A stretch of 64,000 nucleotides of DNA from Candidatus Nomurabacteria bacterium (GTDB lineage Bacteria > Patescibacteriota > WWE3 > UBA101185 > UBA10185), in assembly GCA_020631855.1 (NCBI GenBank), contig JACKGU010000001.1, forward strand, positions 295,601 through 359,600. The letters run 5' to 3'. Shown one piece after another: positions 1,315 through 63,364 of the stretch. A model generated the notes under the pieces. It did no database searches. It saw only the letters and a program-made list of their open reading frames with translations, and had not been told where the DNA came from. Both the position numbers and the translations under genes were made by a program. Position 1 is the stretch's first letter. Each line of letters begins with the position of its first letter.

Positions 1315-1315
1315 T

Positions 1316-4489: not shown

Positions 4490-4637
4490 TTTTGGCCTTT
4501 CTTTATATCTTCAACGGCTTGAACGTAATTTCAAACCCTAAAGACATAAACAATTCTATACTACTTGTTCTTAAAGCAACTAACAGTTAACCAAATAATC
4601 ACGAGAAAATCAAGCCTTTGGGCATAAAACAAAAAAC

Positions 4638-7193: not shown

Positions 7194-7207
7194 TAACTAT
7201 ATTCTCC

Positions 7208-7624: not shown

Positions 7625-7660
7625 AACTTTCTTTCTTTATTCCATCTATCATAAACTCAA

Positions 7661-11332: not shown

Positions 11333-11334
11333 AC

Positions 11335-22578: not shown

Positions 22579-24696
22579 CTATTTGGCTTGATTTTTGTAA
22601 ACATTGATCAAAAACTCTACATGTGCATCAAAACCCTCACCTAGTTGTTCAACACCATATAAAATCTCTTCACGATCAATTTTAGCCGCAAAAGCCCTAT
22701 CTTTAAATTTCTTCTTTACTGACGATACTTTCATGCCGTCGTAACCTTCGGGGCGCATCAATGCGTACGCATATAGAAATCCGGCCATCTCATCCACGGC
22801 AATAAGCGCAGAGGCCAGCCTGGTCTGAGGTTTTACATTGGTTCTCATGTGAGCATGAGCTGCAACTGCATGAATTAAACTCTCAGGATAGTTTCTCTCT
22901 TTAAACCATTCTAATGATTTTGCAGGATGCTCATCAGGGTATTCAAAATAATCAAGGTCATGTAATAAACCTGTGATATACCAGAGTTCGCGATCTTCAT
23001 TGAATTTTTCAGCATATGCTTCAAGACCGCGGGCGATCATAAGAGCATGCTGTATTTGATAGCTGTCCTTGACATGGTCCCGTAAAAGCGCCTCCGCCTC
23101 CTTTCTAGAAGGTAGAAATCCCTCGGAGCTAATGTATAAACTCTCGTTTAAATCAGTTTTACTTAGAGAGTCTTCTACTAGAGGATCGCTCTTGGATAAC
23201 CCGTAGATTTCAGCGTTTGCATCGTCGTAAACATGCTTCAATTGAGGAAATGGAACTCCTTCCCTTGCTGTAACATCCTCTAAAAACCAAAAAACTCTTT
23301 CTGAATGACCATAACCAAATGTCGGCGGCATGCCGTATTCAAGCATTTCAACATAATCAATATCGAGCCACTGCGCTTCCGAATCACCGGAATCTCTCAT
23401 TGACTGCTGTTCCGAAAATCGTTCAAACTGATCCAAGCCACTATTTATTTCCGACCAGCCATTTCCGAGTTCGGAGCCGGCAATAATTGGCTGGAAACGC
23501 TCTGTTATTCTGGTATCTTTTGGGTTCGCCTTTGCTAACGGCGACAAATACTTAGGGTGATTAATTAAAAAGGCAGGCCCCCCAATAGTTCTACGTATTT
23601 CTTTCCAAAGAGCGTCCACTAATCGTGGCCGATTCTCTGTCTCTGCCTTTATTCCGGCTTTTTCGCAAGCTAGCTTTAAATCTTCAATACTTGAATTGTG
23701 TACGTCTACTCCATATCTCTGCTTCATGATGTCAGAGAAATCAATCCTTTCCCACTCTTTTTTGGAGAAATCAACTTCAAAACCCCTAATACTGAACTTC
23801 TTCTTATCTCCGTAAAGAGATTCAATCACGTAATTAAAAAGGTCTTGAATAAAATCCATACCTGATTGCCAATCAGCGTAAGCCCAATAAACCTCCATCG
23901 CCATGTGTTCGGGAAGATGCTCGTCGGATAAACCCTCATTTCTGAATCTTGGGCCTATTTCATAAACTTTTTCATAGCCCCCTCCAATTAATCTTTTCAA
24001 AAAAAGTTCATGGGAAATTCTAAGATAAAGAGTCTCATCGATGGAGTCCATATGAGTCACAAAAGGATTCGCGTCTGCCCCTCCGGGCACTGCTTCTAAA
24101 ACAGGAATATTAATCTCATAGAAACCCCTTTTTTCAAAAAACTCGCGATGAGCAGCCCAAAACTTAGAACGTCTAATGTATCTATCACGAACATCATCAT
24201 TTATCCTTGTATCTAGATATCTTTTACGCATTCTGGTCTCTCTGTCTTTAAGCCCATCGTGCTTGTCGGGCAATGGTCTAAGGGATTTGGCCAATATTCT
24301 TATGCTGTGGGGCTCTATAGACTGCTCGCCGCTATTTGTTATTACTAAAGCTCCCTTGCACTCTATATAATCTCCAATATCTAATAAATCCAGCTCAGAG
24401 TAGGATATTTCACTATTTTTGTGTTCAACTTTTTCAAGATTTTGTTCCTTAATATATACCTGAATTGTGCCTGAAAAATCTTTTATATCAAAAAATGTCA
24501 GCTTTCCATGTCTTCTCAACGACATGATCCAACCGGCTAAAATTACTTCCTTTCCCCCAAGTTTGCCAAAGCTGCTTATAACTTCAGAGATTAGGTGGGT
24601 CCTAAAAGACGTTGCCGGATAAGGATCAACGCCTAGATCTTGAAGATTTTTAAGTTTTTGTAATCTTACATCCCTTAGCTCTTTTAAAGTGGCCAT
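22579..24696 (-). CDS. lysS: Lysyl-tRNA synthetase (class II) fused to a C-terminal HD-domain phosphohydrolase
   Basis: N-terminal OB and class II core, then a ~180-aa HD module (QHAL...LLHDLDY...AAHAH). The start is taken at MATLKEL (24696), behind AGGAAA. Confidence 0.9.
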   Translation of the reverse strand: MATLKELRDVRLQKLKNLQDLGVDPYPATSFRTHLISEVISSFGKLGGKEVILAGWIMSLRRHGKLTFFDIKDFSGTIQVYIKEQNLEKVEHKNSEISYSELDLLDIGDYIECKGALVITNSGEQSIEPHSIRILAKSLRPLPDKHDGLKDRETRMRKRYLDTRINDDVRDRYIRRSKFWAAHREFFEKRGFYEINIPVLEAVPGGADANPFVTHMDSIDETLYLRISHELFLKRLIGGGYEKVYEIGPRFRNEGLSDEHLPEHMAMEVYWAYADWQSGMDFIQDLFNYVIESLYGDKKKFSIRGFEVDFSKKEWERIDFSDIMKQRYGVDVHNSSIEDLKLACEKAGIKAETENRPRLVDALWKEIRRTIGGPAFLINHPKYLSPLAKANPKDTRITERFQPIIAGSELGNGWSEINSGLDQFERFSEQQSMRDSGDSEAQWLDIDYVEMLEYGMPPTFGYGHSERVFWFLEDVTAREGVPFPQLKHVYDDANAEIYGLSKSDPLVEDSLSKTDLNESLYISSEGFLPSRKEAEALLRDHVKDSYQIQHALMIARGLEAYAEKFNEDRELWYITGLLHDLDYFEYPDEHPAKSLEWFKERNYPESLIHAVAAHAHMRTNVKPQTRLASALIAVDEMAGFLYAYALMRPEGYDGMKVSSVKKKFKDRAFAAKIDREEILYGVEQLGEGFDAHVEFLINVYKNQAK

Positions 24697-24730
24697 TATT
24701 TTATTTCCTAAACTGAATACGTACTTCGCA

Positions 24731-24739
24731 ATTATAACA
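24731..24739 (-). promoter_or_regulatory. Extended -10 promoter (TGTTATAAT) of lysS, 34-nt leader with an SD
   Basis: Read on the minus strand. AGGAAA lies about 10 nt before the ATG. Confidence 0.45.
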
Positions 24740-24907
24740 GAAAAGGGGCAGGTACAAAGCACCCAAAAATAGTGCTAAAACATTTTTACGGCCTAAATTT
24801 TTTTATTTGCTTTTATATTGCTAACCCGAACAAAATTCTTTTAGTACATGGCCTAACCTGCTTATACTAGCCACAAACAACAAAGAACTGTAAAATATCT
24901 GCAGAGT

Positions 24908-25873
24908 ATGAAAAAAATAACTGAAGCTACGATCGCTCAAGGCACTAGGGTTTTTGTGAGTACAGATATAGATGTACCTATAGATAATGGGCATATTAGA
25001 AATACTTTTAGACTCGACCGTGGCTTAGAAACTCTTAAGTACATAGTAGATAAAGGAGCAATCCCAGTAATTGGGGGCCATATAAAAAATCCTCAAGGAA
25101 AATACGATCCCCAGCTTAGTACAGCACCTCTTAAAAAGTATTATAATGAAAAATTAGGGGAGGGTTCTTACGAACTATTAGAAAATCTGCGTTTTGACAT
25201 TAGAGAAGATCAGAATGAGGATACCTACGCACAGGAACTGGCAAATAAAACAGAGGTCTTTGTAAACGAGAATTTTGCAACCTCACATCGAACAAATGCT
25301 TCTTTAGTTGCTATTACTAAATACTTACCTTCATTCGCGGGACTTAATTTGAGCAGAGAAATCGAAGCTTTGGATAAAATACTTATCGACTACAAAAAGC
25401 CTTTTACTGCAGTTATTGGCGGAGCGAAAGTTGAAAGCAAGGCACCTGTTATTGATTCGCTTTGCAACATAGCTGACAATATCCTGCTTGGTGGGAAAAT
25501 AGGCTTAAACTATTCTACGGATAATGCTAGGGTGAGCTCTCCGGCCGACTACGCAGACGGTAATCAAGATATCGGCCCGAAAACAATCCTAAACTATACA
25601 GGATACATACTGTCAGCCCAAACACTTTTATGGGCCGGGCCTATGGGAGCTTATGAAAAAGACGAATTCTGTATTGGTACAAATCTAATCGCAGATGCGA
25701 TAGTGGAAGCAACAAAAGGCGGCGCTTATAGCATAATAGGAGGCGGAGATACGATTACAGCTTATAGCAAGAACCACGCATTGGGAGAAGTAAGTTTTGT
25801 TTCAACAGGAGGAGGGGCCATGCTGACATATCTGGCGCATAAGAATATGCCCGGCATTGAGGCTTTAGGATAA
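24908..25873 (+). CDS. pgk: Phosphoglycerate kinase (compact, 321 aa)
   Basis: NENFATSHR, IGGAKVESK, GGGDT, STGGGAML motifs. Confidence 0.92.
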   Translation: MKKITEATIAQGTRVFVSTDIDVPIDNGHIRNTFRLDRGLETLKYIVDKGAIPVIGGHIKNPQGKYDPQLSTAPLKKYYNEKLGEGSYELLENLRFDIREDQNEDTYAQELANKTEVFVNENFATSHRTNASLVAITKYLPSFAGLNLSREIEALDKILIDYKKPFTAVIGGAKVESKAPVIDSLCNIADNILLGGKIGLNYSTDNARVSSPADYADGNQDIGPKTILNYTGYILSAQTLLWAGPMGAYEKDEFCIGTNLIADAIVEATKGGAYSIIGGGDTITAYSKNHALGEVSFVSTGGGAMLTYLAHKNMPGIEALG

Positions 25874-25876
25874 ATT

Positions 25877-26179
25877 ATGGCAAAAAGTTTAAAAGTTCAG
25901 TTTCCGGAACGTTGCATAGGCTGCGAACTGTGCATCATGGAAATACAAAGACAGCTTAAAAAACACGGCCTCGAAGGTTCTCTGATTAGAGTTTTTAAAA
26001 GTGCCAAAGAAGGAAAAGAAATATGCGAGACTCTGGAATACTCAATAGATCTAGACCCGAGCATAAATTCATACGACATTGAACAAATTAGGAAAATTTG
26101 CCCAAAAAGTGTTTTTGTTGTGGCCGACATGACAGAAGAAGAGAACTACGAAGACGCTCTGCTGGAACAGAAAGATTAA
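25877..26179 (+). CDS. Small ferredoxin-like protein (single CxxCxxC...CP cluster motif)
   Basis: FPERCIGCELC plus a distal ICP. Starts 4 nt after the pgk stop and ends 2 nt before the next start. Confidence 0.6.
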   Translation: MAKSLKVQFPERCIGCELCIMEIQRQLKKHGLEGSLIRVFKSAKEGKEICETLEYSIDLDPSINSYDIEQIRKICPKSVFVVADMTEEENYEDALLEQKD

Positions 26180-26181
26180 AT

Positions 26182-27015
26182 ATGCATAAATCAGTCTTAT
26201 TTGTTAATTTAAAAAATAAAACATACGAGGTTAAAAAATTTGACGAACTCGCAAAATACATAGGAGGAGTTGCTGTTGGATTTAAACTTCTTCTTGATAA
26301 TATAGAGCACGATCCAATTATATTTTCTATCGGACCTTTGAACGGCGTGTTTCCTTTCGCATCAAAAACTTCTATCGTTCTGCATAACAATGGCGTAGTC
26401 GAAGACTTATATATCGGGGGTTCCCTAAGCTCCAGAATGGCCTTTTCCGGGGTTGACTCCATAGTATTTATAGAATCCGCAGAAGAGCCCACATACGTTG
26501 AAATAACGAATGAGGAAGTGTTCTTTAAACCAATAACAACTGATATAGATTCTTTAGGATTACCGGGGAAAAGATCAGTTTTAAAACCAATTAAAAATAA
26601 ATACTTTTTAGATGATTATTTTTTAACTCCGGAGTTATTTTTTGAAGAAAAGCTTGCAAAGAAAAATGTAGGAGGAATAGTGTTAACAGGAACAAAAACA
26701 CGTGAAATAAAAAATCCTGAAAAATATAAGGAACTTTTACACGAAATATTAGGTAAAAAGTCTTTAATGGAAATAGATGAGGGAGATAGCCCCTCTTGCA
26801 CATTTTGTCCAATGGGGTGCTCAAAGTCTCGTACCGGAGAAATTGGAGGAAACATATTGGTACACAGCATGGTGGGATGCAAGCTTAGCCAAAAAATATA
26901 CAGCGACGTGGGAACAATTTTTTCTTGCTTGAGTGTGTTGGGCTATTCCTACACACACGAAGATATTGAAGACCTGCCTCTTCTGGTAAAAGAGGTACTG
27001 GAAAAATTAAATTAA
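26182..27015 (+). CDS. Truncated aldehyde:ferredoxin oxidoreductase-like protein (AOR N-domain plus CxxCxxxC)
   Basis: MHKSVLFVNLKNKTYEVKKF..YIGGVAVGFKLL..IFSIGPLNG..SSRMAFSGVDSIVFIE resembles the AOR N-terminal domain. CTFCPMGC matches the AOR 4Fe-4S motif. Only 277 aa. Confidence 0.6.
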   Translation: MHKSVLFVNLKNKTYEVKKFDELAKYIGGVAVGFKLLLDNIEHDPIIFSIGPLNGVFPFASKTSIVLHNNGVVEDLYIGGSLSSRMAFSGVDSIVFIESAEEPTYVEITNEEVFFKPITTDIDSLGLPGKRSVLKPIKNKYFLDDYFLTPELFFEEKLAKKNVGGIVLTGTKTREIKNPEKYKELLHEILGKKSLMEIDEGDSPSCTFCPMGCSKSRTGEIGGNILVHSMVGCKLSQKIYSDVGTIFSCLSVLGYSYTHEDIEDLPLLVKEVLEKLN

Positions 27016-27671
27016 TGAAATATTTAGTAGCAAACTGGAAATCTAATATGACAGTCTCCGAGGTTATTGTCTGGCTAAAAGCTTGGGATAAACTAATAAA
27101 AAGCGCAGAGAGTAATGATGCGGTAAGAGTTTTAGTAGCCCCTTGTTTTATACATCTTCCATTATTTACCGGTCTGGAAAATATTTATTCTTGCGGGCAG
27201 GATGTCTCGGAGAACAGCGTAGGGCCTTATACCGGATACGTGAATGCTACACAGCTAAGGGAATTCGCTGATTACAGCATAGTCGGGCACAGCGAAAGAA
27301 ATGAAGACTCTGAAACAGTTGTCAAAAAGATTAATCAGTGTAGAAATAACGGAATTGAGGCCATTGCTTGTTTCACTCACACTGAAAATGCAACAGAGTA
27401 TTCAAAATTCACAAAGATCTTAGCTTGGGAGGACCCTGAAAATATATCAAAACAAGGAAAGTATGCAGAATTAAGGTATGGTGAAATAAATCACTCTATT
27501 GAAAAAATTTACTCTAATATTGAACCCGATACTGTGTTATTATACGGAGGCTCTGTTAACTCGAATAATATTAGCGAATTAACTAGAATTAAGAGTATAT
27601 CGGGGTTTTTAGTAGGAAACGCAAGTCTGGACGTGGCTCACTTTTATAAGCTATACTGCTCCATGATCTAG
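27015..27671 (+). CDS. tpiA: Triosephosphate isomerase (compact, 218 aa)
   Basis: ANWKSN, GHSERN, GGSV motifs. The start overlaps the previous stop (TAATG). Confidence 0.9.
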   Translation: MKYLVANWKSNMTVSEVIVWLKAWDKLIKSAESNDAVRVLVAPCFIHLPLFTGLENIYSCGQDVSENSVGPYTGYVNATQLREFADYSIVGHSERNEDSETVVKKINQCRNNGIEAIACFTHTENATEYSKFTKILAWEDPENISKQGKYAELRYGEINHSIEKIYSNIEPDTVLLYGGSVNSNNISELTRIKSISGFLVGNASLDVAHFYKLYCSMI

Positions 27672-49056: not shown

Positions 49057-50157
49057 ATGCCCGACAAAAACTTTAGCATTGCAGACACCCCCAATCTTTC
49101 AGCCGCAGACTACGCATTTGCGGAACTCAGAACACTTTCGTCACTGGTTAATGACACCAGAGATATTCCTGAAGACCTTAAAGATAGGCTGAACCAGATG
49201 CTCGATCGTCTTGATAGAATGGCTAAGCTTGGTCACTATGCCCAAGAGTTCGATACCCTTTCCAGATATATCGAGACTATTGCAGAAATACCTTGGGGAG
49301 AAAAAACAAAAGACAATCTTGATCTAACAGAAACAAAAAATATTTTGGATAAGAATCACTATGGAATGGAGTGGGTCAAAGAGAGAATACTTGAATACCT
49401 AGCAACTATAAAACTTTTAAAAGACAGACAAAAAGAAGGGGTTGGAAAATCTCCGGTTTTGTTATTAGTGGGCTTACAGGGCATTGGAAAAACCACACTT
49501 GCAATGTCAGTAGCTGAAGCCTTGGGCAGAAAATTTATTAGAATATCCATGGGAGGTATAGGGAGTACTCTAGAATTAAGAGGAAGAAGCAAAGCCTACC
49601 CTGAAGCTGAGCCCGGGCAAATAATTAAAGCGTTGATCAAAACTGGCGTTAAAAACCCGGTAATCTTACTTGATGAAATTGAAAAAGCAAGCGGAGAGTC
49701 GGGGCTTAGATCGGATATCATGGCGATACTTCTGGAAATACTTGATCCGAGCCAAAATAACAGCTTTAGAGACCATTATATTGACTATCCGATAGATTTA
49801 TCCGACGTATTGTTCATTTGCTCAGCAAACAACACCGGCACAATAACAACTGCACTTATGGATAGGTTGGAAATAATCAAAATGCCTTCCTACACGGATG
49901 CGGAAAAAGCTACTATAGCCAAAGACTACTTATTACCTAAAGTTATCGAACTAAGTGGACTAAAGCCGGAAGAATTAGAAATTGATCCGGCTCTTTGGCC
50001 TAGCATTGTGCGTCCTTTTGGTTTTGATAGTGGTATTAGAAGCCTAAGTAGAACTTTAGAGGCTATTTGCAGAAAAGTAGCCAAAGAAATAGTTGAAGGA
50101 AAAACTAAAAAAGTAAGGGTAGACGAATCAAATTTAAAATACTACCTTCCCAGCTAA
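49057..50157 (+). CDS. Stand-alone Lon-type AAA+ ATPase module (no LON N-domain, no protease domain)
   Basis: Collinear with the Lon ATPase region: HYGMEWVKERILEYLA, GLQGIGKTT, ILLDEIEK, LLEILDPSQNNSFRDHY, LMDRLEII. It ends where the protease domain would begin, and there is no DGPSAG-type serine motif. Confidence 0.8.
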   Translation: MPDKNFSIADTPNLSAADYAFAELRTLSSLVNDTRDIPEDLKDRLNQMLDRLDRMAKLGHYAQEFDTLSRYIETIAEIPWGEKTKDNLDLTETKNILDKNHYGMEWVKERILEYLATIKLLKDRQKEGVGKSPVLLLVGLQGIGKTTLAMSVAEALGRKFIRISMGGIGSTLELRGRSKAYPEAEPGQIIKALIKTGVKNPVILLDEIEKASGESGLRSDIMAILLEILDPSQNNSFRDHYIDYPIDLSDVLFICSANNTGTITTALMDRLEIIKMPSYTDAEKATIAKDYLLPKVIELSGLKPEELEIDPALWPSIVRPFGFDSGIRSLSRTLEAICRKVAKEIVEGKTKKVRVDESNLKYYLPS

Positions 50158-52570: not shown

Positions 52571-54832
52571 ATGTCCGCAAGAAGAGGCCGTAAAAAAAAG
52601 TTTAAGCTGAAGTTTAATATACGTGGGGAAACTGTACGATCAATTGCAGCGTTATTACTAATATTGCTGGCTGGGGTCGTGCTAGTGTCCTTTGCTGCAG
52701 GAGTAGTCTCAGTTGACTCATCTATTCAAAGAGTTCTAAAAATTCTATTTGGATACGCGCACCTTGCTCTAGTGCCGATTTTCCTTATCACCGGACTACT
52801 CTTAATAGACAGTATTGATTGGAGATTTGTAGAGGGCCGGGTCTTAGCCGGCTTCAGTATACTACTTTTCGGAGCATCGGGATTACTTCACGCATTCTAT
52901 CTCGGAGACGGCTACGAGGCAGCAAAAGCAGGAAAAGGCGGGGGAATAGTAGGATACAAGATTTTTTCTGTACTAAGTTCTAATACCAGCTCTCTTGGGG
53001 CAATTCTTGTTCTGCTTACCCTGGTTATAATCTCTATCCTTCTTATCTGGGATAAGCCTATCGAAGAACTTGCAGCAAAACTTTCTGCATTAGGTCTACC
53101 CTTCTCTAAACTCAAGGCGGCGGGACTTGAAAGAAAATCAAAGAACGCTAGCACACACCAGAAAGAGGATATTCACATTACTTCAGGACTCAATCTAAAC
53201 TTCAGCGATAACACAGGTTACAACGAAAGCATAGAGAGTTCTCCGGAAGAAGATGCAACAAATTATCACGACGAAGATTCTGCAGCCGAGGAGATAGAAA
53301 TAATTCCTTCTCTAGCCGAGCCTAAATCTAAGAATTCTCACGAATTCAAAACAAATCCAAAAGTAACAGATACTTTGGCCCCGGCACCCCTTCCCTATTC
53401 GGATAGGGTGTGGGAAAATCCCCCCTTGGATATCTTAAACGATCCTCCGAATACTCCCGTAGATCGAGGAGACATCAATCAGAGATCGGCAATTATTGTT
53501 AACGCCTTAGCTTCTTTCGGCATAAATGTTGTGGTTAAAGACGTGCGTTTTGGTCCCTCTGTAACCCAGTATGCGCTAGAAACGGAGCCGGGAACCAAAA
53601 TTACTAAAATTTTAAGCCACCAATACGACTTAGCCCTAGCTTTGGCTTCGCCCACAGGTTCGGTTAGAATAGAAGCTCCAATCCCCGGAAAAAGTTTAAT
53701 CGGTGTGGAAGTACCAAATAACACGAGGGTCGTAGTTCATTTCAAAGAACTCTTACTGTCTGAGCAGATGAAAAACATGAAATCAAAAATCGGCATGGTT
53801 CTGGGGCTTGATGTTGGGGGGCAGCCGAAAGTTTATAATATCGCAAAAATGCCACACTTACTTATCGCAGGAGCTACAAACTCAGGTAAATCGGTACTCA
53901 TTCACAACATAATGTTCTCAATACTTTTTAGGGCAAGTCCGGAAGAAGTAAAGTTCATACTCATAGATCCCAAGCGCGTTGAACTAATGTACTACAACGA
54001 CATACCGCACTTGCTAACCCCTGTAATCACAGAGACAGAAAAAGCTCCTGCAGCTTTTAAATGGTTGGTGGGCGAAATGACCAGGAGATACAACCTTCTG
54101 GAATCGGCGCACGTAAGAAATATAGAATCTTACAACGAAAAGTCGGGCTTTCAAGCAATGCCATACATAGTAATGATAGTCGACGAGCTGGGGGAAATAA
54201 TGGTAACCGATCCTGCAGCAGTAGAAAAAAGTATTATAAGACTAGCTCAATTAGCAAGGGCTACCGGAATACACTTGGTGTTAGCGCTGCAAAGGCCTTC
54301 CGCAAATGTAGTTACAGGACTTATTAAAGCCAACGTGCCTTGTAGGATCGCGTTTAATGTTACCAGCCAGGTAGATTCCAGGGTAATTATCGACCAGCCG
54401 GGGGCGGAAAAATTGCTAGGAAAAGGAGACATGCTTTTTATTCCTCCAGACGACTCCAAACCCACCAGAATTCAAGGCTCTTATATTGCCGATAACGAAA
54501 TCAATGCCCTGGTATCATATCTTAAAAGCACAGGCGTAAAACCCGACTATAAAGAAGAGATTCTCTCCACACACGAGCCGGAAAAAAGCGTCTCTCTAGG
54601 AGGAGATAATGTCGATGAATATTATGACGAAGCTATGCGAACTGTAATTTCGGAAGGCAGGGCTTCCGCATCCTTATTGCAGAGACGACTGCAGATAGGT
54701 TATTCACGAGCAGCAAGAATTCTGGACGAGCTTGAGGCAAACGGTGTTATAGGTCCGGCGAGAGGTGCAAAACCCAGAGAAATTCTAAACAACTCCATTG
54801 CCGATCTTGAAGACGAAGAAGATGTGATATAA
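52571..54832 (+). CDS. ftsK: DNA translocase FtsK/SpoIIIE
   Basis: N-terminal TM helices, linker, motor domain (IAGATNSGKS, VDELG), C-terminal winged-helix gamma domain (SASLLQRRLQIGYSRAARILDELE). Confidence 0.95.
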   Translation: MSARRGRKKKFKLKFNIRGETVRSIAALLLILLAGVVLVSFAAGVVSVDSSIQRVLKILFGYAHLALVPIFLITGLLLIDSIDWRFVEGRVLAGFSILLFGASGLLHAFYLGDGYEAAKAGKGGGIVGYKIFSVLSSNTSSLGAILVLLTLVIISILLIWDKPIEELAAKLSALGLPFSKLKAAGLERKSKNASTHQKEDIHITSGLNLNFSDNTGYNESIESSPEEDATNYHDEDSAAEEIEIIPSLAEPKSKNSHEFKTNPKVTDTLAPAPLPYSDRVWENPPLDILNDPPNTPVDRGDINQRSAIIVNALASFGINVVVKDVRFGPSVTQYALETEPGTKITKILSHQYDLALALASPTGSVRIEAPIPGKSLIGVEVPNNTRVVVHFKELLLSEQMKNMKSKIGMVLGLDVGGQPKVYNIAKMPHLLIAGATNSGKSVLIHNIMFSILFRASPEEVKFILIDPKRVELMYYNDIPHLLTPVITETEKAPAAFKWLVGEMTRRYNLLESAHVRNIESYNEKSGFQAMPYIVMIVDELGEIMVTDPAAVEKSIIRLAQLARATGIHLVLALQRPSANVVTGLIKANVPCRIAFNVTSQVDSRVIIDQPGAEKLLGKGDMLFIPPDDSKPTRIQGSYIADNEINALVSYLKSTGVKPDYKEEILSTHEPEKSVSLGGDNVDEYYDEAMRTVISEGRASASLLQRRLQIGYSRAARILDELEANGVIGPARGAKPREILNNSIADLEDEEDVI

Positions 54833-54878: not shown

Positions 54879-55166
54879 ATGGAATTACAAACATTTTTAA
54901 TAATTACCTTAATATTCATCACTTTAAGTATAGTTGCAGTTTCTGTTTACATAATACTAATACTTAGAGAGTTTAAATCCACGGTACAAAAAGTTAATGG
55001 TGTCCTCTCTGTTACCGAGACACTATCGACTAAGCTCGCTAATACGAGCATAACCTTTGGAAATATTGTAAATGCCGTAATGGGTGCTGTGAAAACTGTC
55101 AAAACAATAAGATCCATAGCTGATTTTGGAGATGAGGAGAATAAAGATGCCAAAAGCAAAAGGTAA
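54879..55166 (+). CDS. Small membrane protein (DUF948-like)
   Basis: N-terminal TM followed by a helical segment. Pairing with a YtxH-like gene resembles the Firmicutes arrangement. Confidence 0.5.
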   Translation: MELQTFLIITLIFITLSIVAVSVYIILILREFKSTVQKVNGVLSVTETLSTKLANTSITFGNIVNAVMGAVKTVKTIRSIADFGDEENKDAKSKR

Positions 55167-55446
55167 ATTCATAAAAGGTTTGTTTCTTGGTGCTGCTATT
55201 GGAACCGTGCTCGGGCTTCTTAACGCACCGGCAAAAGGCTCTGAAACAAAAAAAAGCCTTAAAAGCAAGTCAGAAAACTTTAAAAAGAAAATCAATGCTT
55301 TAGAACAAGAAGATATTGAGCAGCTCAAAAAAAGAGTAAATAAAGATGTGAAAAGCTCTATAAGCAAAAGTCTTAAAATACTAGCTTCAAAAATAGAAAA
55401 AGAAAACGAAAAATCTAACAAGGATAAAACAGATCGTATTGCATAG
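55147..55446 (+). CDS. YtxH-like protein
   Basis: KGKFIKGLFLGAAIGTVLGLLNAPAKGSETKK motif, then a coiled Lys/Glu-rich region. Start taken at MPKAKG. Confidence 0.6.
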   Translation: MPKAKGKFIKGLFLGAAIGTVLGLLNAPAKGSETKKSLKSKSENFKKKINALEQEDIEQLKKRVNKDVKSSISKSLKILASKIEKENEKSNKDKTDRIA

Positions 55447-55460: not shown

Positions 55461-55469
55461 TGATACAAT
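55461..55469 (+). promoter_or_regulatory. Extended -10 (TGATACAAT) 6 nt from the ATG at 55476
   Basis: Read directly. No SD. Confidence 0.45.
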
Positions 55470-55475: not shown

Positions 55476-56285
55476 ATGGACCTTAATGCTGCTCAAAACA
55501 CCAATAATCAACAGCTAAACTCGCACCCAGACGATGCTCAGAAAAATAAGCTCAATACGATTTTACCGGGCACCAATTCTCAAAGCTTGGGAGGGAATTC
55601 TCCGATTACAAGCATTGCAGGGGTGTCGGACGACGATCTTCAAAACAAAAGCATAAATCTAGACACGCAAGATACCCTAAGTACAGAAAATAAGACCAAC
55701 ACAAACAAAGAAATAGAAAAAGCAAAAGGCTACAAAGATGACATAAGTAAAATTGTATATGACTTTCTAGAAAAAAACGGAGAGAGCCTAGACAGTATGG
55801 AAGAGGTTCCATCAGACATAGGACCCTCAATAAATAACCATCCCGCAACACTTGGCCCCGGAAAAGGAAGAAGGGAGATTTTTACAAGCCCTGTAATAGG
55901 AACTATTAGTGAAAATGCGCCTATAAGCCATCGCGAAACCTTCCAAACTGAAATAGACCCGGCTTCTCAAACAGAGCAGATTTCTGTAGCTAAGGCAGAA
56001 ACATCCGCTCAAGAAGAAAAAAATTCTTCGGAAATTCAAAGTATACAGGAAGTATTACAAAACCCACAACCAGATTCCGAGAATTACGATAAAATATCAA
56101 CATTGATTCCAGAAACCGAACCTATACCGCAGCCGGATAGTGATTTGAACGTTGTTGACCTGAGAACAGGCCATGAAAATTTGCAACAAATTGCCGATCC
56201 AATAGATAAATTAACTGAAGAAGCAGATGAGAAAGAGGCAGACTTTATAACAAAAGTGGAGGATACACATGCTGTCGCTAACTGA
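55476..56285 (+). CDS. Acidic, low-complexity (likely disordered) hypothetical protein
   Basis: 269 aa, rich in D/E/Q/N/S/T/P, no TM. The 3' end overlaps the next gene by 17 nt. Confidence 0.6.
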   Translation: MDLNAAQNTNNQQLNSHPDDAQKNKLNTILPGTNSQSLGGNSPITSIAGVSDDDLQNKSINLDTQDTLSTENKTNTNKEIEKAKGYKDDISKIVYDFLEKNGESLDSMEEVPSDIGPSINNHPATLGPGKGRREIFTSPVIGTISENAPISHRETFQTEIDPASQTEQISVAKAETSAQEEKNSSEIQSIQEVLQNPQPDSENYDKISTLIPETEPIPQPDSDLNVVDLRTGHENLQQIADPIDKLTEEADEKEADFITKVEDTHAVAN

Positions 56286-58677
56286 TATAGCCTACAACAT
56301 CTTCTGGATACTCTTTTACATTATTTTCTTGGCGAGCACTATATTAGGAATATTTTATATGCTTGCCAAAACCAAAAGACAAAGATTTCTAAAAAACAAA
56401 CAATATAATTTGACCTTCTTCCATGTTAAAGTACCACAACAAAACGAATTCGAAATAGATGCGGCAGAACAACTTTTTGCAGGCGTGGCAGGTTTGAGAA
56501 GATCAACTCTGGAAGGACTTTTGAAAGGCCAATACCAAGTCTCATTTGAGATCTTGGCCAAACACGGGCAAATAGGCTTCTATATAGTAATGCCTGACGA
56601 ATTGGTGGAATTTATGGAAAAGCAGATTAACGGGGCCTATCCTACTGCCGAAATAGACATTATTGATCCAAACGAAGTTTGGGACAGAGGGCACTTCACA
56701 GCTATCGCAGAGCTAAAACTTAAAGGACCGGCATTCTACCCTATTAGAACGATAAAAGAGAAAGAAGGTGACCCGCTAAGCACTCTCACCTCGGTACTAA
56801 CAAAGCTGAAAAAAGACGAGGTTATAGCTATTCAGCTTGTAACCTCACCTGCCAGTAACTGGTGGAGGGCTGCAGGAAATGCTTTTATCGGACATGTCAA
56901 ACACGGCGGAAATCCCGAAAAGAAAAGTGCCCCAGACAACTCCATGCTGGAAGGTGTTGAGAAAAAAATAGGAAAAAGCGGGCTTGATGTCGTTGTGAGA
57001 GTTGTCTCAATAGCTGAAACCAAACACATAGCGGAAAGCCACATAATGAACGTTGTAACCGCCTTCGAGCAGTATACTGATGTTAAATACAATAAATTCA
57101 AAAAAAGCAGAGTTTTATTTAAAACAAAATTTGTAAATGATTTCATTTACAGAAACATAACGCCTCTAAATATATACATCCCGATTTTATATAACACACT
57201 TTATAGCAGAACCTCGGTACTGAATATTACTGAGATGGCAAACATCTTCCACATGCCTAACAAAAACATACAAACTCCAAACATTCTGTGGCTAATTGCA
57301 AGAAAGGCGTCAGCCCCGTCAAACATACCTCACGAAGGCCTGTATTTAGGAATCAATCAGTTTAGAGGCTCACAGAGAGGTATCTATATGAAAGAGAAAG
57401 ATCGTACACGACATATGTATATTATAGGGCAAACGGGCACAGGTAAATCCGAGTTTATGAAGACACTGGTACTACAAGATATTGCCGCGGGAAAAGGTTT
57501 GGCTCTAATTGATCCTCACGGAAGCGATATAGACGATATCTTAGAAAAAATCCCGGAAAGCAGAATAGACGACGTAATACTTTTTGATGTTTCAGATATA
57601 GAACGCCCGATGGGATTAAACATGCTTGAAGCTGAAACCGAGGAAGAGAAACACATGATTATTAACTCATTTATTGCCTTGTTATATAAGCTATACGACC
57701 CAAACAGACAAGGTATCATGGGCCCTCAACTTGAAAGGGCTATAAGAAACGTTATGCTAACCGCAATGGTAGATAAAGAATCAACCATGGTAGATGTTCT
57801 AAGGCTATTGATCGACAACAAATATGTAGAAACTTTTATACCAAGAATTCAAGATCCACTAGTTAAACGGTACTGGACTGATGAAATGGCCAACACAAGC
57901 GACTACCATAAAGGCGAGAAAATGGGCTATTTTGTATCAAAATTTGATAGGTTCGTAACAGAGAGGACCATGAGAAATATACTAGGGCAACCAAAAAGTG
58001 CATTTAATTTTAACAAGATTATGGCAGAAAAAAAGATACTGCTCGTAGACCTGTCTAAAGGTAAGATTGGAGAAGAGAATTCAAACTTTATCGGCCTGCT
58101 TCTGGTTCCACGAATACTTGCTGCAGCTCTATCCAGAGCTTCCCTTTTAGGTAAAGAGGATTTCCCTGATTTTTATCTTTATGTAGATGAGTTTCAAAAC
58201 TTTGCCACACCTGACTTTGCTACTATACTGTCGGAAGCCAGAAAATATAAACTAAATTTGGTTGTCGCGCACCAATTTGTGGCACAGTTAACCGACGACA
58301 TTAAAGAAGCCGTGTTTGGTAACGTAGGAACAACTTGTGTTTACAGGGTTGGTCCGGACGATGCCGAATATCTTGAAAAACAGTTTGACCCTTATTTCAC
58401 AAAGTCAGATTTATTAAACTTGCCAATTGGAAACGCTTACATGAGGCTGCTTGTCGACGGCCACCCAACAACGCCTTTTTCCCTTGCTGTAGATTGGGAC
58501 ATGGTTAATAAAACTAAAAAAGATCCTTCTGTGGCAAAGAGAATAAGAGAAAACTCAAGCATGAAATACGGAACACCAGTAAATGAGGTTGAGGAATACA
58601 TAAATAAAAGGGCAGGGCTGAATAAACAAGGCGAGGATAGCCAACTACTTGAAAAAAGAAGTTTAATACCTTTTTAA
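56269..58677 (+). CDS. Membrane-anchored VirD4/TraD-like (type IV coupling protein-like) P-loop ATPase
   Basis: One N-terminal TM, a ~340-aa domain of unknown function, then GQTGTGKSEF (Walker A), IDPHGS, LYVDEFQNF (Walker B), ARKYKLNLVVAHQFVAQL. Confidence 0.8.
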   Translation: MLSLTDIAYNIFWILFYIIFLASTILGIFYMLAKTKRQRFLKNKQYNLTFFHVKVPQQNEFEIDAAEQLFAGVAGLRRSTLEGLLKGQYQVSFEILAKHGQIGFYIVMPDELVEFMEKQINGAYPTAEIDIIDPNEVWDRGHFTAIAELKLKGPAFYPIRTIKEKEGDPLSTLTSVLTKLKKDEVIAIQLVTSPASNWWRAAGNAFIGHVKHGGNPEKKSAPDNSMLEGVEKKIGKSGLDVVVRVVSIAETKHIAESHIMNVVTAFEQYTDVKYNKFKKSRVLFKTKFVNDFIYRNITPLNIYIPILYNTLYSRTSVLNITEMANIFHMPNKNIQTPNILWLIARKASAPSNIPHEGLYLGINQFRGSQRGIYMKEKDRTRHMYIIGQTGTGKSEFMKTLVLQDIAAGKGLALIDPHGSDIDDILEKIPESRIDDVILFDVSDIERPMGLNMLEAETEEEKHMIINSFIALLYKLYDPNRQGIMGPQLERAIRNVMLTAMVDKESTMVDVLRLLIDNKYVETFIPRIQDPLVKRYWTDEMANTSDYHKGEKMGYFVSKFDRFVTERTMRNILGQPKSAFNFNKIMAEKKILLVDLSKGKIGEENSNFIGLLLVPRILAAALSRASLLGKEDFPDFYLYVDEFQNFATPDFATILSEARKYKLNLVVAHQFVAQLTDDIKEAVFGNVGTTCVYRVGPDDAEYLEKQFDPYFTKSDLLNLPIGNAYMRLLVDGHPTTPFSLAVDWDMVNKTKKDPSVAKRIRENSSMKYGTPVNEVEEYINKRAGLNKQGEDSQLLEKRSLIPF

Positions 58678-58687
58678 GAAAGACGCT

Positions 58688-60565
58688 ATGGTAGAAACAG
58701 CAACCGCCGCAAATGACGCTTTAACAGCATTAAAGGGAAGGAGCGAAACAAAAGTTTCGCCTCTTGAAGAATTTTGGACAAATATAAATGCGCTTACTGC
58801 GGCTTCGCGACAACTGCTGACTAAAATAGAAACCAGCCCCCAGAGCGGACTGAATCAACGCAGAGCCGCACAGCTAGCTAGACAGGCTTTGGCTAGCTAT
58901 GAGATGACGACTAGCCTGACAGAAAATCCCACTAATAGAGAGGAAATTAATGCCCTTTCCAGGTTAGGCGCTGCGACAAACATCGACCCAACAAATCTAT
59001 ACAGAGAGACAATATTACTACAGCCGGAAGTACACTCGTATGAATATTCGGTCAAGCTGTTATTCTCCCACATAGTGTCTATGACCACTGAGGACAGAAG
59101 CAACACCACAAAAAACTTAGCATTGGTTTTAGCCGGGAATTGCTTAGACGGGAGTAAGGTTGATGTAAGAAAAATTCAAAACGAGCTCAGAGAATTAAAT
59201 TTTCCGAACCACCACTTATCAGAAGCAGCAGAGGCCATCGCTGCTATAATCCGGCATACGCCTTACAATCTAACAGATCATCAAGAAAAATTGGGGGTAA
59301 CAGGATACCCGGAAGTCTTGGCTAAAGCTTATAAGAGACTCTACGATCTAGCAACCAAACTTGATCCGGATACACCGCCTACAAAAGCGGAAGAAAGGTC
59401 ACAGCACCAACCCTATGCCAATTGGGAAGCCAGGGCCAAAGAAAGAGAATCGATACACTACAACAGTAATCCTAGAGAACACAAAATATTTTCACGTAAA
59501 GGAGAGATTTTGACTGCCAAGGGTTCGGAGAATAAAACAGCCCAAGTCTTAATTCCAACTGCCATACTTACCAGAACCGTACCTTTGGCGGACTTTGCAG
59601 GCAATGACAGGGCTTTCAATAAAGGATACGTAAAACTACAGCAGGTATTTACCTGCACAACATTTCAAGAAGTCGAAGCTACCCTTGAAATGCTAAACGC
59701 AGCATCTATTGCAGAAGAAGAAAAAACAGCACAGGTACCCATATATGTTCCTAAAACCGTGGTTCAAAATGGAAAAACAACAATTGAATATGAGATAACC
59801 TACATGGAGATGCCGATTGGAACCTATAATAGCTGGCGTAAAGCTTTAATGGAGGCTCGCAAATCCTACCTTAGAGCAGGATTTTCTATTCAAAACCAAG
59901 ATATAACTGCTGGAGTACGCTTAGCAACAGAGCAAGAGAATGCCTATGCAGAACAGACAATGTTGAATAGATATCAAGAGCTTTTGTCTGGACCTAGCCA
60001 TATCAAAGATTCTCTAGACGCATGGATGAGTCAAAGTCATTCAAGGGACAGATTTTACATTAAAGAATTGATGCAAAATACAATGGAACTAGTAAATGAG
60101 TTGACTGAAGAGCTTAATTTGACCCGAAACCCTCGCAATATAACATTAGAGGCTATGAAAACTCTTTATGAAGAAGGGCATGAGCAGCACCCACTGACGA
60201 TGGAAAAAGAAATAACACAGATGTTCGACAACAGAATGGCCGAGCGCTCTAACTATTATGTTGCAATGAAGGTAGCTTTGACAACTCTTGAAAATGTAAA
60301 TGCTTTACCGCCGCCAAGAGATCGCAAAGAAGCAAAAGAACAGATTAGAATGATTATAAATGTTCAAACACAAATAAAACAAATAATGCTTTTCTTGGCA
60401 CTTCAAGAAAAGGGCGTCTCCGAGAGCCGTGCCTCACAAGTCGCGCTGGAAAACTTCCCGGAACACTCAGTGATTAAAGCTCAAGTACCTTATAGGGCTA
60501 GAAATAGTCAAGCCAGAAGGGTTGCAGGAAAGAGACAAGCTGTTAGCAACCAAGGCTCTAGTTGA
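58688..60565 (+). CDS. Hypothetical 625-aa soluble protein (no family recognised)
   Basis: Long ORF starting 10 nt after the ATPase gene. Predicted mostly helical, no TM or signal peptide, no motif I can name. Confidence 0.6.
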   Translation: MVETATAANDALTALKGRSETKVSPLEEFWTNINALTAASRQLLTKIETSPQSGLNQRRAAQLARQALASYEMTTSLTENPTNREEINALSRLGAATNIDPTNLYRETILLQPEVHSYEYSVKLLFSHIVSMTTEDRSNTTKNLALVLAGNCLDGSKVDVRKIQNELRELNFPNHHLSEAAEAIAAIIRHTPYNLTDHQEKLGVTGYPEVLAKAYKRLYDLATKLDPDTPPTKAEERSQHQPYANWEARAKERESIHYNSNPREHKIFSRKGEILTAKGSENKTAQVLIPTAILTRTVPLADFAGNDRAFNKGYVKLQQVFTCTTFQEVEATLEMLNAASIAEEEKTAQVPIYVPKTVVQNGKTTIEYEITYMEMPIGTYNSWRKALMEARKSYLRAGFSIQNQDITAGVRLATEQENAYAEQTMLNRYQELLSGPSHIKDSLDAWMSQSHSRDRFYIKELMQNTMELVNELTEELNLTRNPRNITLEAMKTLYEEGHEQHPLTMEKEITQMFDNRMAERSNYYVAMKVALTTLENVNALPPPRDRKEAKEQIRMIINVQTQIKQIMLFLALQEKGVSESRASQVALENFPEHSVIKAQVPYRARNSQARRVAGKRQAVSNQGSS

Positions 60566-60615: not shown

Positions 60616-60621
60616 TATAAT
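60616..60621 (+). promoter_or_regulatory. -10 box TATAAT 7 nt from the ATG at 60629
   Basis: Read directly. Weak -35 and no SD. Confidence 0.35.
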
Positions 60622-60628: not shown

Positions 60629-61834
60629 ATGTTTAAACTGCCATTTAAAATAAATTTCAATAAAAAATCAAAAACGGATACTTTTTTAACAATAGACATA
60701 GGATCAAGCACAGTCAAAACACTAGCTTTTTATAATGACAGCGAAAGCAGATTAAAAGTAATCGGGCTGGGGAAGGAATTTTTACCCGAGGGTGCGGTAC
60801 GAGCCGGATATATAACTGATTTAAAAAGTGTCATAGAAGCAGTGGACGAAACAATTTATCAGGCCCTTGCTAATACGGAACACAGAATTACAGATGCGAT
60901 AATAGGAATATCCGAAAACCTGTGCTATTCGCAAGTTACAACCGGCCGGCTAAACAGAACTACGCCGGGAGAACTGGTTACAGAGAAAGAGCTGGATAAT
61001 TTGAAATACAAAATAATTGATGCTGCGTACAACACGGCCCTAGATGATTTTGTCTATAAAACCGGCGATCTTTCAACAGAGCTTATTCATATAAGCTCTA
61101 TTCCGGCCCATACAAAACTTGATTCAAAGATTGTTGACGACCCAACCGACTTGCCGGGAGCAAAAGTTGAGCTGGCAATTTACAATGCCTATTCCCCCGA
61201 ATATCATACAAAGCAACTGCAAAAAATTGCTGACACGCTAAAACTTTCAGTTTTAGCTATGGTTCCCAACATGTTCTCGTTAGGGGAAGCCCTAAAAAAA
61301 CTCACAAAGGACAATGAGTTGGATTGTATCATTTTAGATATCGGGGGAGAAACAACAGATGTAGGAATTATGTTTGGAGGGGGCCTTATAACTACAAAAA
61401 GCTTACCTATAGGAGGAAGGCACTATACAGAACAGCTATCTTTACAGAGCGGCCTTACTTGGGCAGAATCTGAAAAAAAGAAGAATCAGTACTATTTCGG
61501 ACAAACAGCAGATACAGAAACATCTTTCATCGAAACAGTAATGACTGAAACAACCGACCTGTGGCTCAGCGGGCTGGAAACCCTGTTTAATGAATTTAAT
61601 GGGGTCAGGACCTTTGCATCTGATATATTTGTAGTTGGGGGAGGAAGCTTGCTACCCGATATAATGGCAGCTCTAGAGTCCAGGCCATGGACAAAATCCA
61701 TACCTTTTAGAGAGCCGCCAAGAATAAAACGGGTCAGCATTTCTGAGCTGGATTTTGCTAGAGATACAACCGGCAAACTAAATGAATTGGATTATATTCA
61801 AGCCCTGTCTTTAGGTTTGATGGGAGAATATTAA
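60629..61834 (+). CDS. Actin-fold ATPase of the FtsA/PilM type
   Basis: LTIDIGSSTVKTLAF (phosphate 1), ILDIGGETTDVGI (phosphate 2), VVGGGSLLP (adenosine). No adjacent ftsZ. Confidence 0.7.
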   Translation: MFKLPFKINFNKKSKTDTFLTIDIGSSTVKTLAFYNDSESRLKVIGLGKEFLPEGAVRAGYITDLKSVIEAVDETIYQALANTEHRITDAIIGISENLCYSQVTTGRLNRTTPGELVTEKELDNLKYKIIDAAYNTALDDFVYKTGDLSTELIHISSIPAHTKLDSKIVDDPTDLPGAKVELAIYNAYSPEYHTKQLQKIADTLKLSVLAMVPNMFSLGEALKKLTKDNELDCIILDIGGETTDVGIMFGGGLITTKSLPIGGRHYTEQLSLQSGLTWAESEKKKNQYYFGQTADTETSFIETVMTETTDLWLSGLETLFNEFNGVRTFASDIFVVGGGSLLPDIMAALESRPWTKSIPFREPPRIKRVSISELDFARDTTGKLNELDYIQALSLGLMGEY

Positions 61835-63364
61835 ATGACAAAATTTGAAATTGAAATACACGACGATTTAATAAATGTGCTTGGAAAACTACAAACAATA
61901 AATGACGACGGAATTGAGCTCATTATTCCTGAAGGTTCAGTAATTTTTGAAAACATTTTAAATCTTAGAATTATTCAAAAAGAACTTGAAAAATCTGGAA
62001 AAACAATACATTTCGAGACGTCGGATGAAAACGGAAAAAGACTTATAGAAAATCTTGAAAATGACTCCTCCGGCCTTTCTTCCGAGCTGGATTTTACAGA
62101 AGCTGAAGCAACTGAAATAAACCCAAAAACACACAGAAAAAAACAACGCACGGTCTCGCTTGCATTACCTAAATTTAAATTTTCAGGGGGTACAAAATTT
62201 AAAATAGCAGGTTTAATAGGAGTTGTGACCGCCGTAATCATAGGAAGTTTATACCTATTGATTTGGAAACAGCATAAGGCAATCGTAAATTTAGTCGTGG
62301 AGGCACAGCCTCTGGTTAAGAGCGTACAGATTAGAGTGGCAACAAACAGCGAAACAAATACCGAACAAAAAACTCTAAAAGGCTCACAAGTAAGTACAAG
62401 CACCGTCCAGACCGCGAGCGTGCCAACAACAGGGGAAAAACTGGTAGGTAACCAAGCCTCAGGAACTGTAAAAATTTACAACAAAACAACAAATGGTAAA
62501 ACCTTTAAAAAAGGTACGGTTCTTGTCTATAAAAAAGACGATAAAACCCTAAAATATACACTTGACGAAGAAGTAGAAGTACCTGAAAGAACGGAAGATA
62601 TCTTGCAGGATCCGCCATTAATAACTTGGGGTGAAAAAGAAGTTGATGTTACAGCAGAGGAAATAGGAAATTCTTATAATATTGACTCGGGCGAAAGTTT
62701 GGATTTTGATGATTTCGACAAGGACGATTACACTGCAAAGAGCACGACAAAAATCAACGGGGGCAGCAGCGAGACACTTAAAATTGTGGCCCAAGAAGAT
62801 ATAGACAACCTACTTATCGAGCTGGAAAAAAGTGACGATAAAACTAAAACCGAGCTACAGCAAAAAACTTCGACAGGACGAAAATTAATTCCCGGGTCAA
62901 TCAGCCTTCAGACAACAAAAGATTCCTTTAGCGCCGAACTAGGAGACGAGGCGGAAAATCTAGAGCTTGTCAGAGAAGCGACGGCCACAGGGCTAACTTA
63001 TTCCGAAAATGAACTGGAAGTTCTACTAGACAGACTCGTAGATGATTTCGTCCCGGAAGGCTTTGAGCTATCGACAAAAGACAAGGAGATAAAAGCAGAG
63101 GTCTTAGGTGCAACGGAAACTACGACACTTTCAAGCGAACAGGCCGATTTACAGGTAACCATTAAGGCTTACGTGATACCAAAAATTGATGAGATCGAGC
63201 TAAGGGAGAATTTGGCAGGGGCCCCGTTGTCGAAAGCAGAAGAAATATTAAATGCTATTTCTAATGTTGCAACCTATTCTTTAGATGTAAAACCAAATAT
63301 TCCGCTGCTTAATTCCCTTCCCCATAATCCGGAAAATATAGAGATAACAGTAACTAAAAGGTAA
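61835..63364 (+). CDS. Bitopic membrane protein (cytoplasmic ~120-aa N-domain, one TM, ~360-aa external domain)
   Basis: TM segment IAGLIGVVTAVIIGSLYLLIW. The start abuts the stop of the actin-like gene. Confidence 0.6.
   Translation: MTKFEIEIHDDLINVLGKLQTINDDGIELIIPEGSVIFENILNLRIIQKELEKSGKTIHFETSDENGKRLIENLENDSSGLSSELDFTEAEATEINPKTHRKKQRTVSLALPKFKFSGGTKFKIAGLIGVVTAVIIGSLYLLIWKQHKAIVNLVVEAQPLVKSVQIRVATNSETNTEQKTLKGSQVSTSTVQTASVPTTGEKLVGNQASGTVKIYNKTTNGKTFKKGTVLVYKKDDKTLKYTLDEEVEVPERTEDILQDPPLITWGEKEVDVTAEEIGNSYNIDSGESLDFDDFDKDDYTAKSTTKINGGSSETLKIVAQEDIDNLLIELEKSDDKTKTELQQKTSTGRKLIPGSISLQTTKDSFSAELGDEAENLELVREATATGLTYSENELEVLLDRLVDDFVPEGFELSTKDKEIKAEVLGATETTTLSSEQADLQVTIKAYVIPKIDEIELRENLAGAPLSKAEEILNAISNVATYSLDVKPNIPLLNSLPHNPENIEITVTKR

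Follow-up and report, generated by a model that had tools for sequence, protein, structure and literature searches.

The closest described relatives of the ATPase considered here are VirB4 and the type IV coupling proteins (T4CPs), among them TrwB, VirD4, TraD and DotL. VirB4 pairs a characteristic N-terminal domain with a RecA-like C-terminal domain (CTD), and is encoded with VirB3, VirB6 and VirB8. T4CPs feature a nucleotide-binding domain with Walker A and B motifs and an inserted all-alpha domain, are joined directly to an anchor of two transmembrane (TM) helices, and are linked to a relaxase or a type IV secretion system (T4SS). Here we describe a membrane-anchored ATPase, together with the small acidic protein encoded immediately upstream of it, from a 64,000-nucleotide stretch of a Candidatus Nomurabacteria bacterium of the class WWE3 (contig JACKGU010000001.1, positions 295,601 to 359,600 of the forward strand), hereafter the window. 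This ATPase combines the domain order of VirB4 with a T4CP-like motor sequence and a membrane anchor of its own, an unusual and previously undescribed architecture within the VirB4/VirD4 superfamily. Literature searches for DUF8128 (PF26449), the Pfam family to which it belongs, found nothing.

Patescibacteria, which comprise a large share of bacterial diversity, are host-dependent and possess very small genomes. In one species, Southlakia epibionticum, an essential T4SS has been reported without a recognizable coupling protein (Wang et al. 2023, Cell, PMC10633639).

A VirB4-like domain joined to a coupling-protein-like motor

The ATPase gene (56269–58677, + strand) encodes 802 residues, with domains delimited from the open reading frame (ORF), precomputed Pfam annotation and an AlphaFold2 model. 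As the initial annotation had it, there is one TM helix at the N-terminus, seen as a single hydrophobic segment at residues 7–33 (56287–56367, + strand; Kyte-Doolittle maximum 2.49); the model places a helix at residues 4–44. A K/R-rich stretch follows, so by the positive-inside rule the remainder of the protein is predicted to face the cytoplasm. Beyond it lie the DUF8128 domain (residues ~45–352; 56401–57324, + strand), which contains LTFFHVKVP and SFEILAKHGQIGFYIVMP, and a RecA-like motor (residues ~370–785; 57376–58623, + strand) with an inserted all-alpha domain at residues ~455–590. The motor carries GQTGTGKSEF at residues 387–396, IDPHGS at 414–419, LYVDEFQNF at 637–645 and ARKYKLNLVVAHQFVAQL at 657–674. 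Walker A (GQTGTGKS; 57427–57450, + strand), Walker B (LYVDEF; 58177–58194, + strand) and their adjoining residues are invariant across 50 homologs. Precomputed Pfam annotation of the identical protein, present in two other loci (L002/L003; related loci are cited by such handles throughout), comprises DUF8128, DUF87 and TraG-D_C, and the arrangement of an N-terminal PF26449 followed by a P-loop motor places the protein in the DUF8128 family. Comparison of C-termini also revealed a terminal IPF tail (58666–58674, + strand) after a low-confidence linker. The tail (IPF, FPF or LPF) is conserved only in WWE3; in an alignment of homologs, conservation reaches at least 90% for both P801 and F802, and residues 787–802 have a predicted local distance difference test score (pLDDT) below 50.

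The region between helix and motor had been left unassigned in the initial annotation, as a domain of ~340 residues, and a Foldseek search now identifies it as resembling the VirB4 N-terminal domain. All 13 significant matches to the N-domain model (13/13) were TrwK/VirB4, and among solved structures this fold is known only from VirB4 of T4SSs. The pLDDT was 84.6 for the full-length ATPase and 81.3 for the N-domain modeled alone. Compared with solved structures, the motor half scored highest against the VirB4 CTD (4ag5; 29.2), the DptH C-domain (27.4) and TrwB (26.7), with lower figures for HerA (23.9), DotL (23.2) and FtsK (14.7). By sequence, the motor appears nearest to coupling proteins: the Pfam families TraG-D_C and TrwB_AAD_bind match above their cut-offs, the top PDB profile matches are DotL and TrwB, and the top NCBIfam matches are TraD and the CD1115 VirD4-like family, although scores fall far under the cut-off of every curated T4CP family (SXT_TraD 43.4 vs 366 bits; CD1115 42 vs 250; TraD_Ftype 18.5 vs 521).

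The ATPase shares the two-domain fold of VirB4, an N-terminal domain of VirB4 type followed by a RecA-like CTD, and is only 9–14% identical to VirB4 sequences (TrwK of R388 and the VirB4 CTD of Thermoanaerobacter pseudethanolicus), reaches 13.3 of the 643 bits required for TIGR00929, and has no match to CagE_TrbE_VirB. Unlike VirB4, it brings a TM helix of its own at the N-terminus, lacks VirB3, VirB6 and VirB8 as gene neighbors, and has a motor sequence nearer to the coupling proteins. With T4CPs it shares the Walker A/B nucleotide-binding domain and the inserted all-alpha domain; unlike them, it has one TM helix instead of two, no linkage to a relaxase or T4SS, and a VirB4-like domain of ~300 residues interposed between the helix and the motor. 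It lacks the 4TM, alpha and gamma domains of FtsK/SpoIIIE, and the gene directly upstream (52571–54832), whose identical sequence in Pfam features FtsK_alpha, FtsK_SpoIIIE and FtsK_gamma, is the canonical FtsK; the earlier view that the ATPase is not the division translocase is thus upheld. The HerA-type N-terminal barrel and a NurA partner are likewise absent.

A widespread family encoded with a small upstream partner

The ATPase had been described as an orphan, a misleading term given the very large size of its family. More than 4,000 homologs were detected, the best at 58–68% identity from candidate division WWE3 and other Patescibacteria, and the best 120 of these all carry PF26449 at the N-terminus. 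A search with the N-terminal 365 residues alone yielded 1,651 clusters (50% identity). The matches invariably lie at the N-terminus, and the full-length proteins so found are mostly 780–1,100 residues long. When one genome per species was scanned, at least 600 GTDB species genomes matched the ATPase; the best 80 loci among them belong to WWE3, many Microgenomates lineages, Dojkabacteria, and Doudna-, Magasanik- and Uhrbacteria. A few matching records are titled as other phyla. These are probably mis-binned contigs, since they display Patescibacterial gene order.

Some genomes feature two DUF8128 paralogs near each other. In L074 they are in tandem (1128–6163), and in L108 (5558–13237) a c10-like protein of 170 residues and a sigma-70 factor lie between them. 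A further locus, L094, encodes an ATPase (7001–9075) that matches the window protein at 51% identity in its N-terminal half and 84% in its C-terminal half, the reading frame being broken where the two meet; this mosaic could be a product of recombination between lineages or an assembly chimera.

The three ORFs of the locus, their spacing and all motifs quoted for them in the initial annotation are present as described. The first gene (55476–56285, + strand) overlaps the ATPase gene by 17 nt and encodes a low-complexity, hydrophilic protein of 269 residues, with an isoelectric point of 4.3, a Q/N/S/T/P content of 39% and no hydrophobic segment, in agreement with its earlier description as acidic, rich in these residues and without a TM helix. 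It has no match in Pfam, NCBIfam or PADLOC, and among 5.8 billion proteins it matches only itself or identical copies. Its position, by contrast with its sequence, recurs: a small same-strand ORF lies directly 5' of the ATPase in 59/79 independent loci, with a median length of 152 residues, a median gap to the ATPase of 3 nt, hydrophilic composition, and a TM-like segment in only 4 of the 59. Within WWE3 these partners are alike only in a C-terminal peptide (LTEEADEKEADFITKVEDTHAVAN in the window; 56211–56282, + strand), which an alignment of eight WWE3 loci (the window, L001, L006, L007, L085, L087, L088 and L090) resolves to the consensus LT..AD.EE.EFI.KV..AHG; a BLAST comparison of the window and L001 partners gives E 9e-10. 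Homology of the small proteins across classes was sought with hhalign and rejected, with probabilities below 1% except between two Microgenomates groups.

A Shine-Dalgarno sequence, GGAGG (56258–56262, + strand), was read 6 nt 5' of the ATPase ATG. Both this site and the ATPase start fall inside the upstream gene, an arrangement that suggests translational coupling of the two. Overall, the conserved unit is a pair, comprising a small, acidic, largely disordered protein and the ATPase, which is chromosomal, vertically inherited and widespread in Patescibacteria.

An ATPase of the VirD4 class next to orphan genes could instead be the remnant of a mobile element, either an integrative and conjugative element or a prophage, or a HerA-type anti-phage defense ATPase with a variable effector. 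Some observations lean this way: motor-only relatives of 411–582 residues and 31–39% identity occur on IMG/VR contigs, one of them (L101) having genes for an M23 peptidase and a PLD nuclease next to it; PADLOC returns mad8 (1e-15) and HerA (2e-8); and a slot of variable content adjoins the ATPase, as described below. The PADLOC matches are weak, and these scores, like those from NCBIfam, lie far under family level; membership of a defense system (HerA-NurA, DptH, Nezha or MADS) was rejected on finding only generic matches. A phage or mobile origin was rejected in turn, as IMG/VR holds only short, motor-only relatives, which would fit a coupling-protein lineage for the motor, and as phrog_5156, which also matches, is a family without functional assignment. 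The GC content of all three genes, overall and at third codon positions, is in line with that of the neighboring housekeeping genes, and the window as a whole is native in composition. We scanned ~40 of the ~55 window ORFs with Pfam; all of these were called housekeeping, and none is a relaxase, integrase, pilin, T4SS channel or phage gene. Moreover, ~95 related loci contain no second ATPase of VirB4 or T4CP type within 10 kb, synteny is conserved and inheritance vertical across classes, the family is near-universal rather than patchy, and the apparent counterpart gene in S. epibionticum was called essential. An origin in a mobile element or defense system is thus largely refuted, and we give it very little credence. 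The same data bear out the initial annotation in that this is not a conventional conjugative element. Its statement that the window has no T4SS genes holds, among the ORFs scanned, for relaxase, integrase, pilin and channel genes; that there is "no VirB4" needs qualifying, because an N-terminal domain of VirB4 type is part of the ATPase.

A variable slot downstream of the pair

The third gene (58688–60565, + strand) begins 10 nt after the ATPase gene on the same strand, and encodes a protein of 625 residues. The initial annotation took the three genes as one tight module, which it suggested may be a minimal translocation device flanked by adaptor and substrate; on this model the acidic protein would be the adaptor and the 625-residue protein a lineage-specific cargo or effector. 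The close packing of the genes on one strand is consistent with this proposal, as is the position of the next -10-like box (TATAAT, 60616–60621), which occurs only before the following FtsA-like gene, 7 nt 5' of its ATG (60629). The third protein is also Arg/Lys-rich in its last 25 residues, and the same slot in L001, L085 and L088 holds other large, fast-evolving orphans (822, 727 and 1,051 residues, respectively), as would fit variable effectors. However, at least five WWE3 relatives (L006, L007, L087, L090 and L098) have nothing in the slot, the ATPase running directly into the FtsA-like gene, and the ATPase therefore does not need the 625-residue protein. This protein has no match in Pfam, NCBIfam or PADLOC, and no homolog among the 5.8 billion proteins, its sole match being a 100%-identical fragment. 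The slot proteins of L001 and L085 are homologous to each other (E 5e-24), whereas the window protein has no detectable similarity to any of them, and the other slot proteins lack a basic C-terminus. Relatives have either no gene or a different one in the slot, so that co-conservation of the trio, the criterion set in the initial annotation, fails for the 625-residue gene; the trio is not a unit and the pair is. This gene was inserted in one lineage, into a slot of variable content outside the conserved module, and a three-gene device, though possible, is a weak proposition that we consider improbable.

A resemblance by eye between the 625-residue protein and the other slot proteins was pursued and rejected, as BLAST gave nothing significant and a motif hidden Markov model derived from the L001 and L085 proteins gave E 7.5. 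In L095 (1144–2532) and L096 (1121–2509), the slot contains an ORF of 462 residues that by eye resembles the N-terminal catalytic part of alanyl-tRNA synthetase. All copies of the window locus in other samples are 100% identical, leaving no strain variation from which to estimate the ratio of nonsynonymous to synonymous substitution rates in the orphans.

An extended -10 promoter had been placed before the first gene. The sequence match itself, TGATACAAT, is present (55461–55469, + strand), 6 nt 5' of the ATG of the 269-residue protein; a scan for promoters and terminators returned counts no higher than in shuffled sequence, and the box is therefore a bare consensus match. The 269-residue gene and the FtsA-like gene alike feature a -10-like box ending 6–7 nt from the ATG and no Shine-Dalgarno sequence. 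If these boxes are used, the mRNAs of both genes would be leaderless.

Apparent counterparts called essential in Southlakia epibionticum

The transposon sequencing (Tn-seq) data of Wang et al. (PMC10633639, Table S1) include a pair of genes resembling that of the window. SEML1_0142 (3,060 nt, 1,019 residues) is annotated with a "TraM recognition domain", has a P-loop domain at residues 381–800, and belongs to a core, Patescibacteria-enriched family (PMC10633639). It was classed ES/ES/ES, with insertions falling from 114 in the input to 11/11/9 at three time points. SEML1_0141 (420 nt), which lies 12 nt upstream, was classed GD/ES/ES, and its insertions fell from 9 to 0/0/0. Neither gene is mentioned in the main text of that paper (PMC10633639). 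As in the window, a small hypothetical gene thus stands just 5' of a large ATPase with a P-loop domain from about residue 381. The S. epibionticum ATPase differs in being longer, and in L109, which shares its gene order, the extra length is a C-terminal low-complexity extension; the partner is unrelated in sequence, and the neighboring gene is gyrB instead of the FtsA-like gene.

L109 links the two loci. It encodes a protein of 997 residues with a precomputed DUF8128 annotation, which aligns with the window ATPase over 766 residues at 36.6% identity. Just upstream, with 4 nt in between, is the gene for an acidic, hydrophilic protein of 208 residues. L109 and S. epibionticum have a common gene order, namely L28, site-2 protease, L20, L35, IF3, YifB, small ORFs, the ATPase and GyrB. 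A second type of DUF8128 protein must be distinguished from this one. The two paralogs of L108 comprise a TM-bearing type of 852 residues and a type of 1,078 residues beside a sigma factor, the latter arranged like SEML1_0293/0294. This sigma-linked paralog, at 33% identity to the window ATPase, likewise joins DUF8128 to a T4CP-like motor, but it is longer, and the L108 copy as called has no N-terminal hydrophobic helix. In a rough neighbor-joining tree the sigma-linked long forms comprise a separate clade, with the window ATPase and that of L109 both outside it. The S. epibionticum copy, SEML1_0293 (2,766 nt, beside a sigma factor), was classed NE/NE/NE, with insertions going from 82 to 87/120/110 (PMC10633639, Table S1).

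From these comparisons we infer that SEML1_0141/0142, both called essential, are the counterparts of the two window genes. Since these genes were called essential, the module would perform a function that the cell cannot lose. A 2025 survey of Patescibacteria genomes describes the S. epibionticum t4cp as non-essential and allows for exaptation (PMC12102498); this non-essential t4cp fits SEML1_0293, one of two T4CP-like genes in the supplementary tables of Wang et al., the other being SEML1_0142. Term searches of the survey returned no mention of SEML1_0142 and its small upstream gene (PMC12102498).

Candidate roles of the ATPase

We tentatively propose, as the most likely role among those considered, that the ATPase is the "missing" coupling or energizing ATPase of the chromosomal, non-conjugative T4SS of the phylum, which is encoded elsewhere in the genome. 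This role is ranked first because structure searches place T4SS ATPases closest to each of the two domains, and because the T4SS is essential and is reported to lack a coupling protein. The ATPase would form a membrane-bound ring, in which the VirB4-like domain may provide a membrane-proximal docking platform, and ATP hydrolysis would pass a macromolecular substrate (protein or DNA) on to a channel in the membrane. The small partner, with its class-dependent sequence, may serve as an adaptor or regulator acting through its conserved C-terminal peptide. According to the 2025 survey, virB4 and T4CP genes frequently lie apart (PMC12102498).

Several observations weigh against a T4SS role. No T4SS genes were found near the module in any locus examined. 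SEML1_0142 was already classed ES at T0, whereas most T4SS genes were classed GD at T0 and ES later (PMC10633639). The survey counts 5,713 VirD4-like (T4CP) homologs in 2,918/3,035 Patescibacteria genomes, only 148 of the 5,713 near virB4, and VirB4 itself in fewer genomes, 2,417/3,035 (PMC12102498). As T4CP-like genes are commoner than VirB4, many genomes may have the ATPase without a T4SS, a comparison confounded by the incompleteness of metagenome-assembled genomes. The small partners of WWE3, Microgenomates and Parcubacteria display no detectable homology between classes, the recurrent neighbors of the ATPase are DNA and division genes, and the orthology of SEML1_0142 is drawn from synteny with L109, length, domain position, naming and a rough tree, not from its own sequence.

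Much of this evidence would suit a second-ranked alternative, in which the ATPase is a housekeeping translocase independent of any T4SS, that is, a second membrane-anchored motor of the FtsK/HerA class, exapted from a VirB4/VirD4 ancestor and serving chromosome replication, segregation, cell division or another basic envelope process. Such a motor need not adjoin T4SS genes and could be more widespread than VirB4, as the survey counts indicate for T4CP-like genes (PMC12102498), and essentiality from T0, unlike that of most T4SS genes, is what primase, RpoD and GyrB display (PMC10633639). The neighbors vary by clade with a common theme of DNA and division genes: in WWE3, ftsK on the upstream side and, on the downstream side, an FtsA/PilM-like gene and ruvX; within five ORFs of the ATPase in Microgenomates, a XerC/D-like recombinase in 24/55 loci and FtsB/DivIC in 20/55; gyrB directly downstream in Saccharimonadia; and in Parcubacteria dnaX, recognized by eye in a cluster representative only. 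At least one such gene lies within five ORFs in 33/55 loci, a count that is only suggestive, with no genome-wide synteny control, given that a DNA or division gene within five ORFs is not rare in genomes of 600–1,000 genes and that the categories were picked after the fact. Furthermore, a canonical FtsK is already encoded next door, no DNA-binding domain was detected in the ATPase, the fold of its N-domain is known only from VirB4 of T4SSs, and its motor features the T4CP-type all-alpha domain. We regard a housekeeping translocase as less likely, and retain the T4SS role as our working proposal.

Genes surrounding the module

Synteny around the module is conserved in WWE3, where FtsK, a YtxH protein and a small TM protein precede it and an FtsA/PilM-like protein, a bitopic protein of 509 residues and RuvX follow. 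In the window, the upstream pair (54879–55446) comprises a TM protein of 95 residues, with a weak DUF948 match, and a YtxH-family protein; the same pair occurs in L001 (9021–9579), L090, L087 and L094. L109 features a small polytopic membrane protein at the equivalent position, and its likely counterpart, SEML1_0140, was called NE/GD/GD. Downstream (60629–63364) lie the FtsA/PilM-like actin-fold gene (401 residues), the bitopic protein, which has a TM helix near residue 125 and no firm Pfam match, and RuvX. In WWE3 the ATPase is always followed by the FtsA-like gene; the block was also found in L001, L006, L007, L085, L087, L090 and L095, and was not seen in other classes.

Among the Pfam-scanned ORFs, the housekeeping genes of the window include those for translation (ribosomal proteins, EF-Tu, EF-G, IF-2 and LepA), for chaperones and secretion (SecA, DnaK, DnaJ and HrcA), for the envelope and division (MurJ and FtsK), and for RNA metabolism and transcription (NusA, PNPase and RNase J). 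Two ORFs at 7661–14709, outside the Pfam scan, resemble rpoC and rpoB by size and position. A lysyl-tRNA-synthetase-type protein of 727 residues (22579–24762, - strand; tRNA-synt_2 and anticodon OB fold) features a C-terminal HD phosphohydrolase domain. At 24908–27671, the phosphoglycerate kinase is short (321 residues, with its Pfam match in three pieces), and a protein of 305 residues between pgk and tpiA has as its only Pfam match the N-terminal domain of aldehyde:ferredoxin oxidoreductase. Lastly, an AAA+ protein of 366 residues (49057–50157) possesses a Lon-type lid and no protease domain, and its position is kept in WWE3 (L001 and L002).

Implications for T4SS ATPases and Patescibacteria

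These data describe an ATPase family that is undiscussed in the literature searched, and whose apparent counterpart in the one species tested was called essential. The family joins a docking domain of VirB4 type to a motor of coupling-protein type, and is relevant to the divergence of VirB4 and VirD4. It is doubtful, but worth stating, that the DUF8128 ATPase and its small acidic partner comprise an essential, Patescibacteria-specific translocation system that operates without a canonical T4SS. If so, the T4SS-independent ATPase would represent a third branch of the VirB4/VirD4 superfamily, in which the VirB4 N-domain was kept, or was recombined with a coupling-protein motor, and such a system might handle the chromosome when cells divide, or else import or export a macromolecule vital to host-dependent cells. 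Overall, the ATPase is either the missing motor of an essential T4SS or a new essential machine, and the genetic system of Southlakia epibionticum makes its role directly testable.

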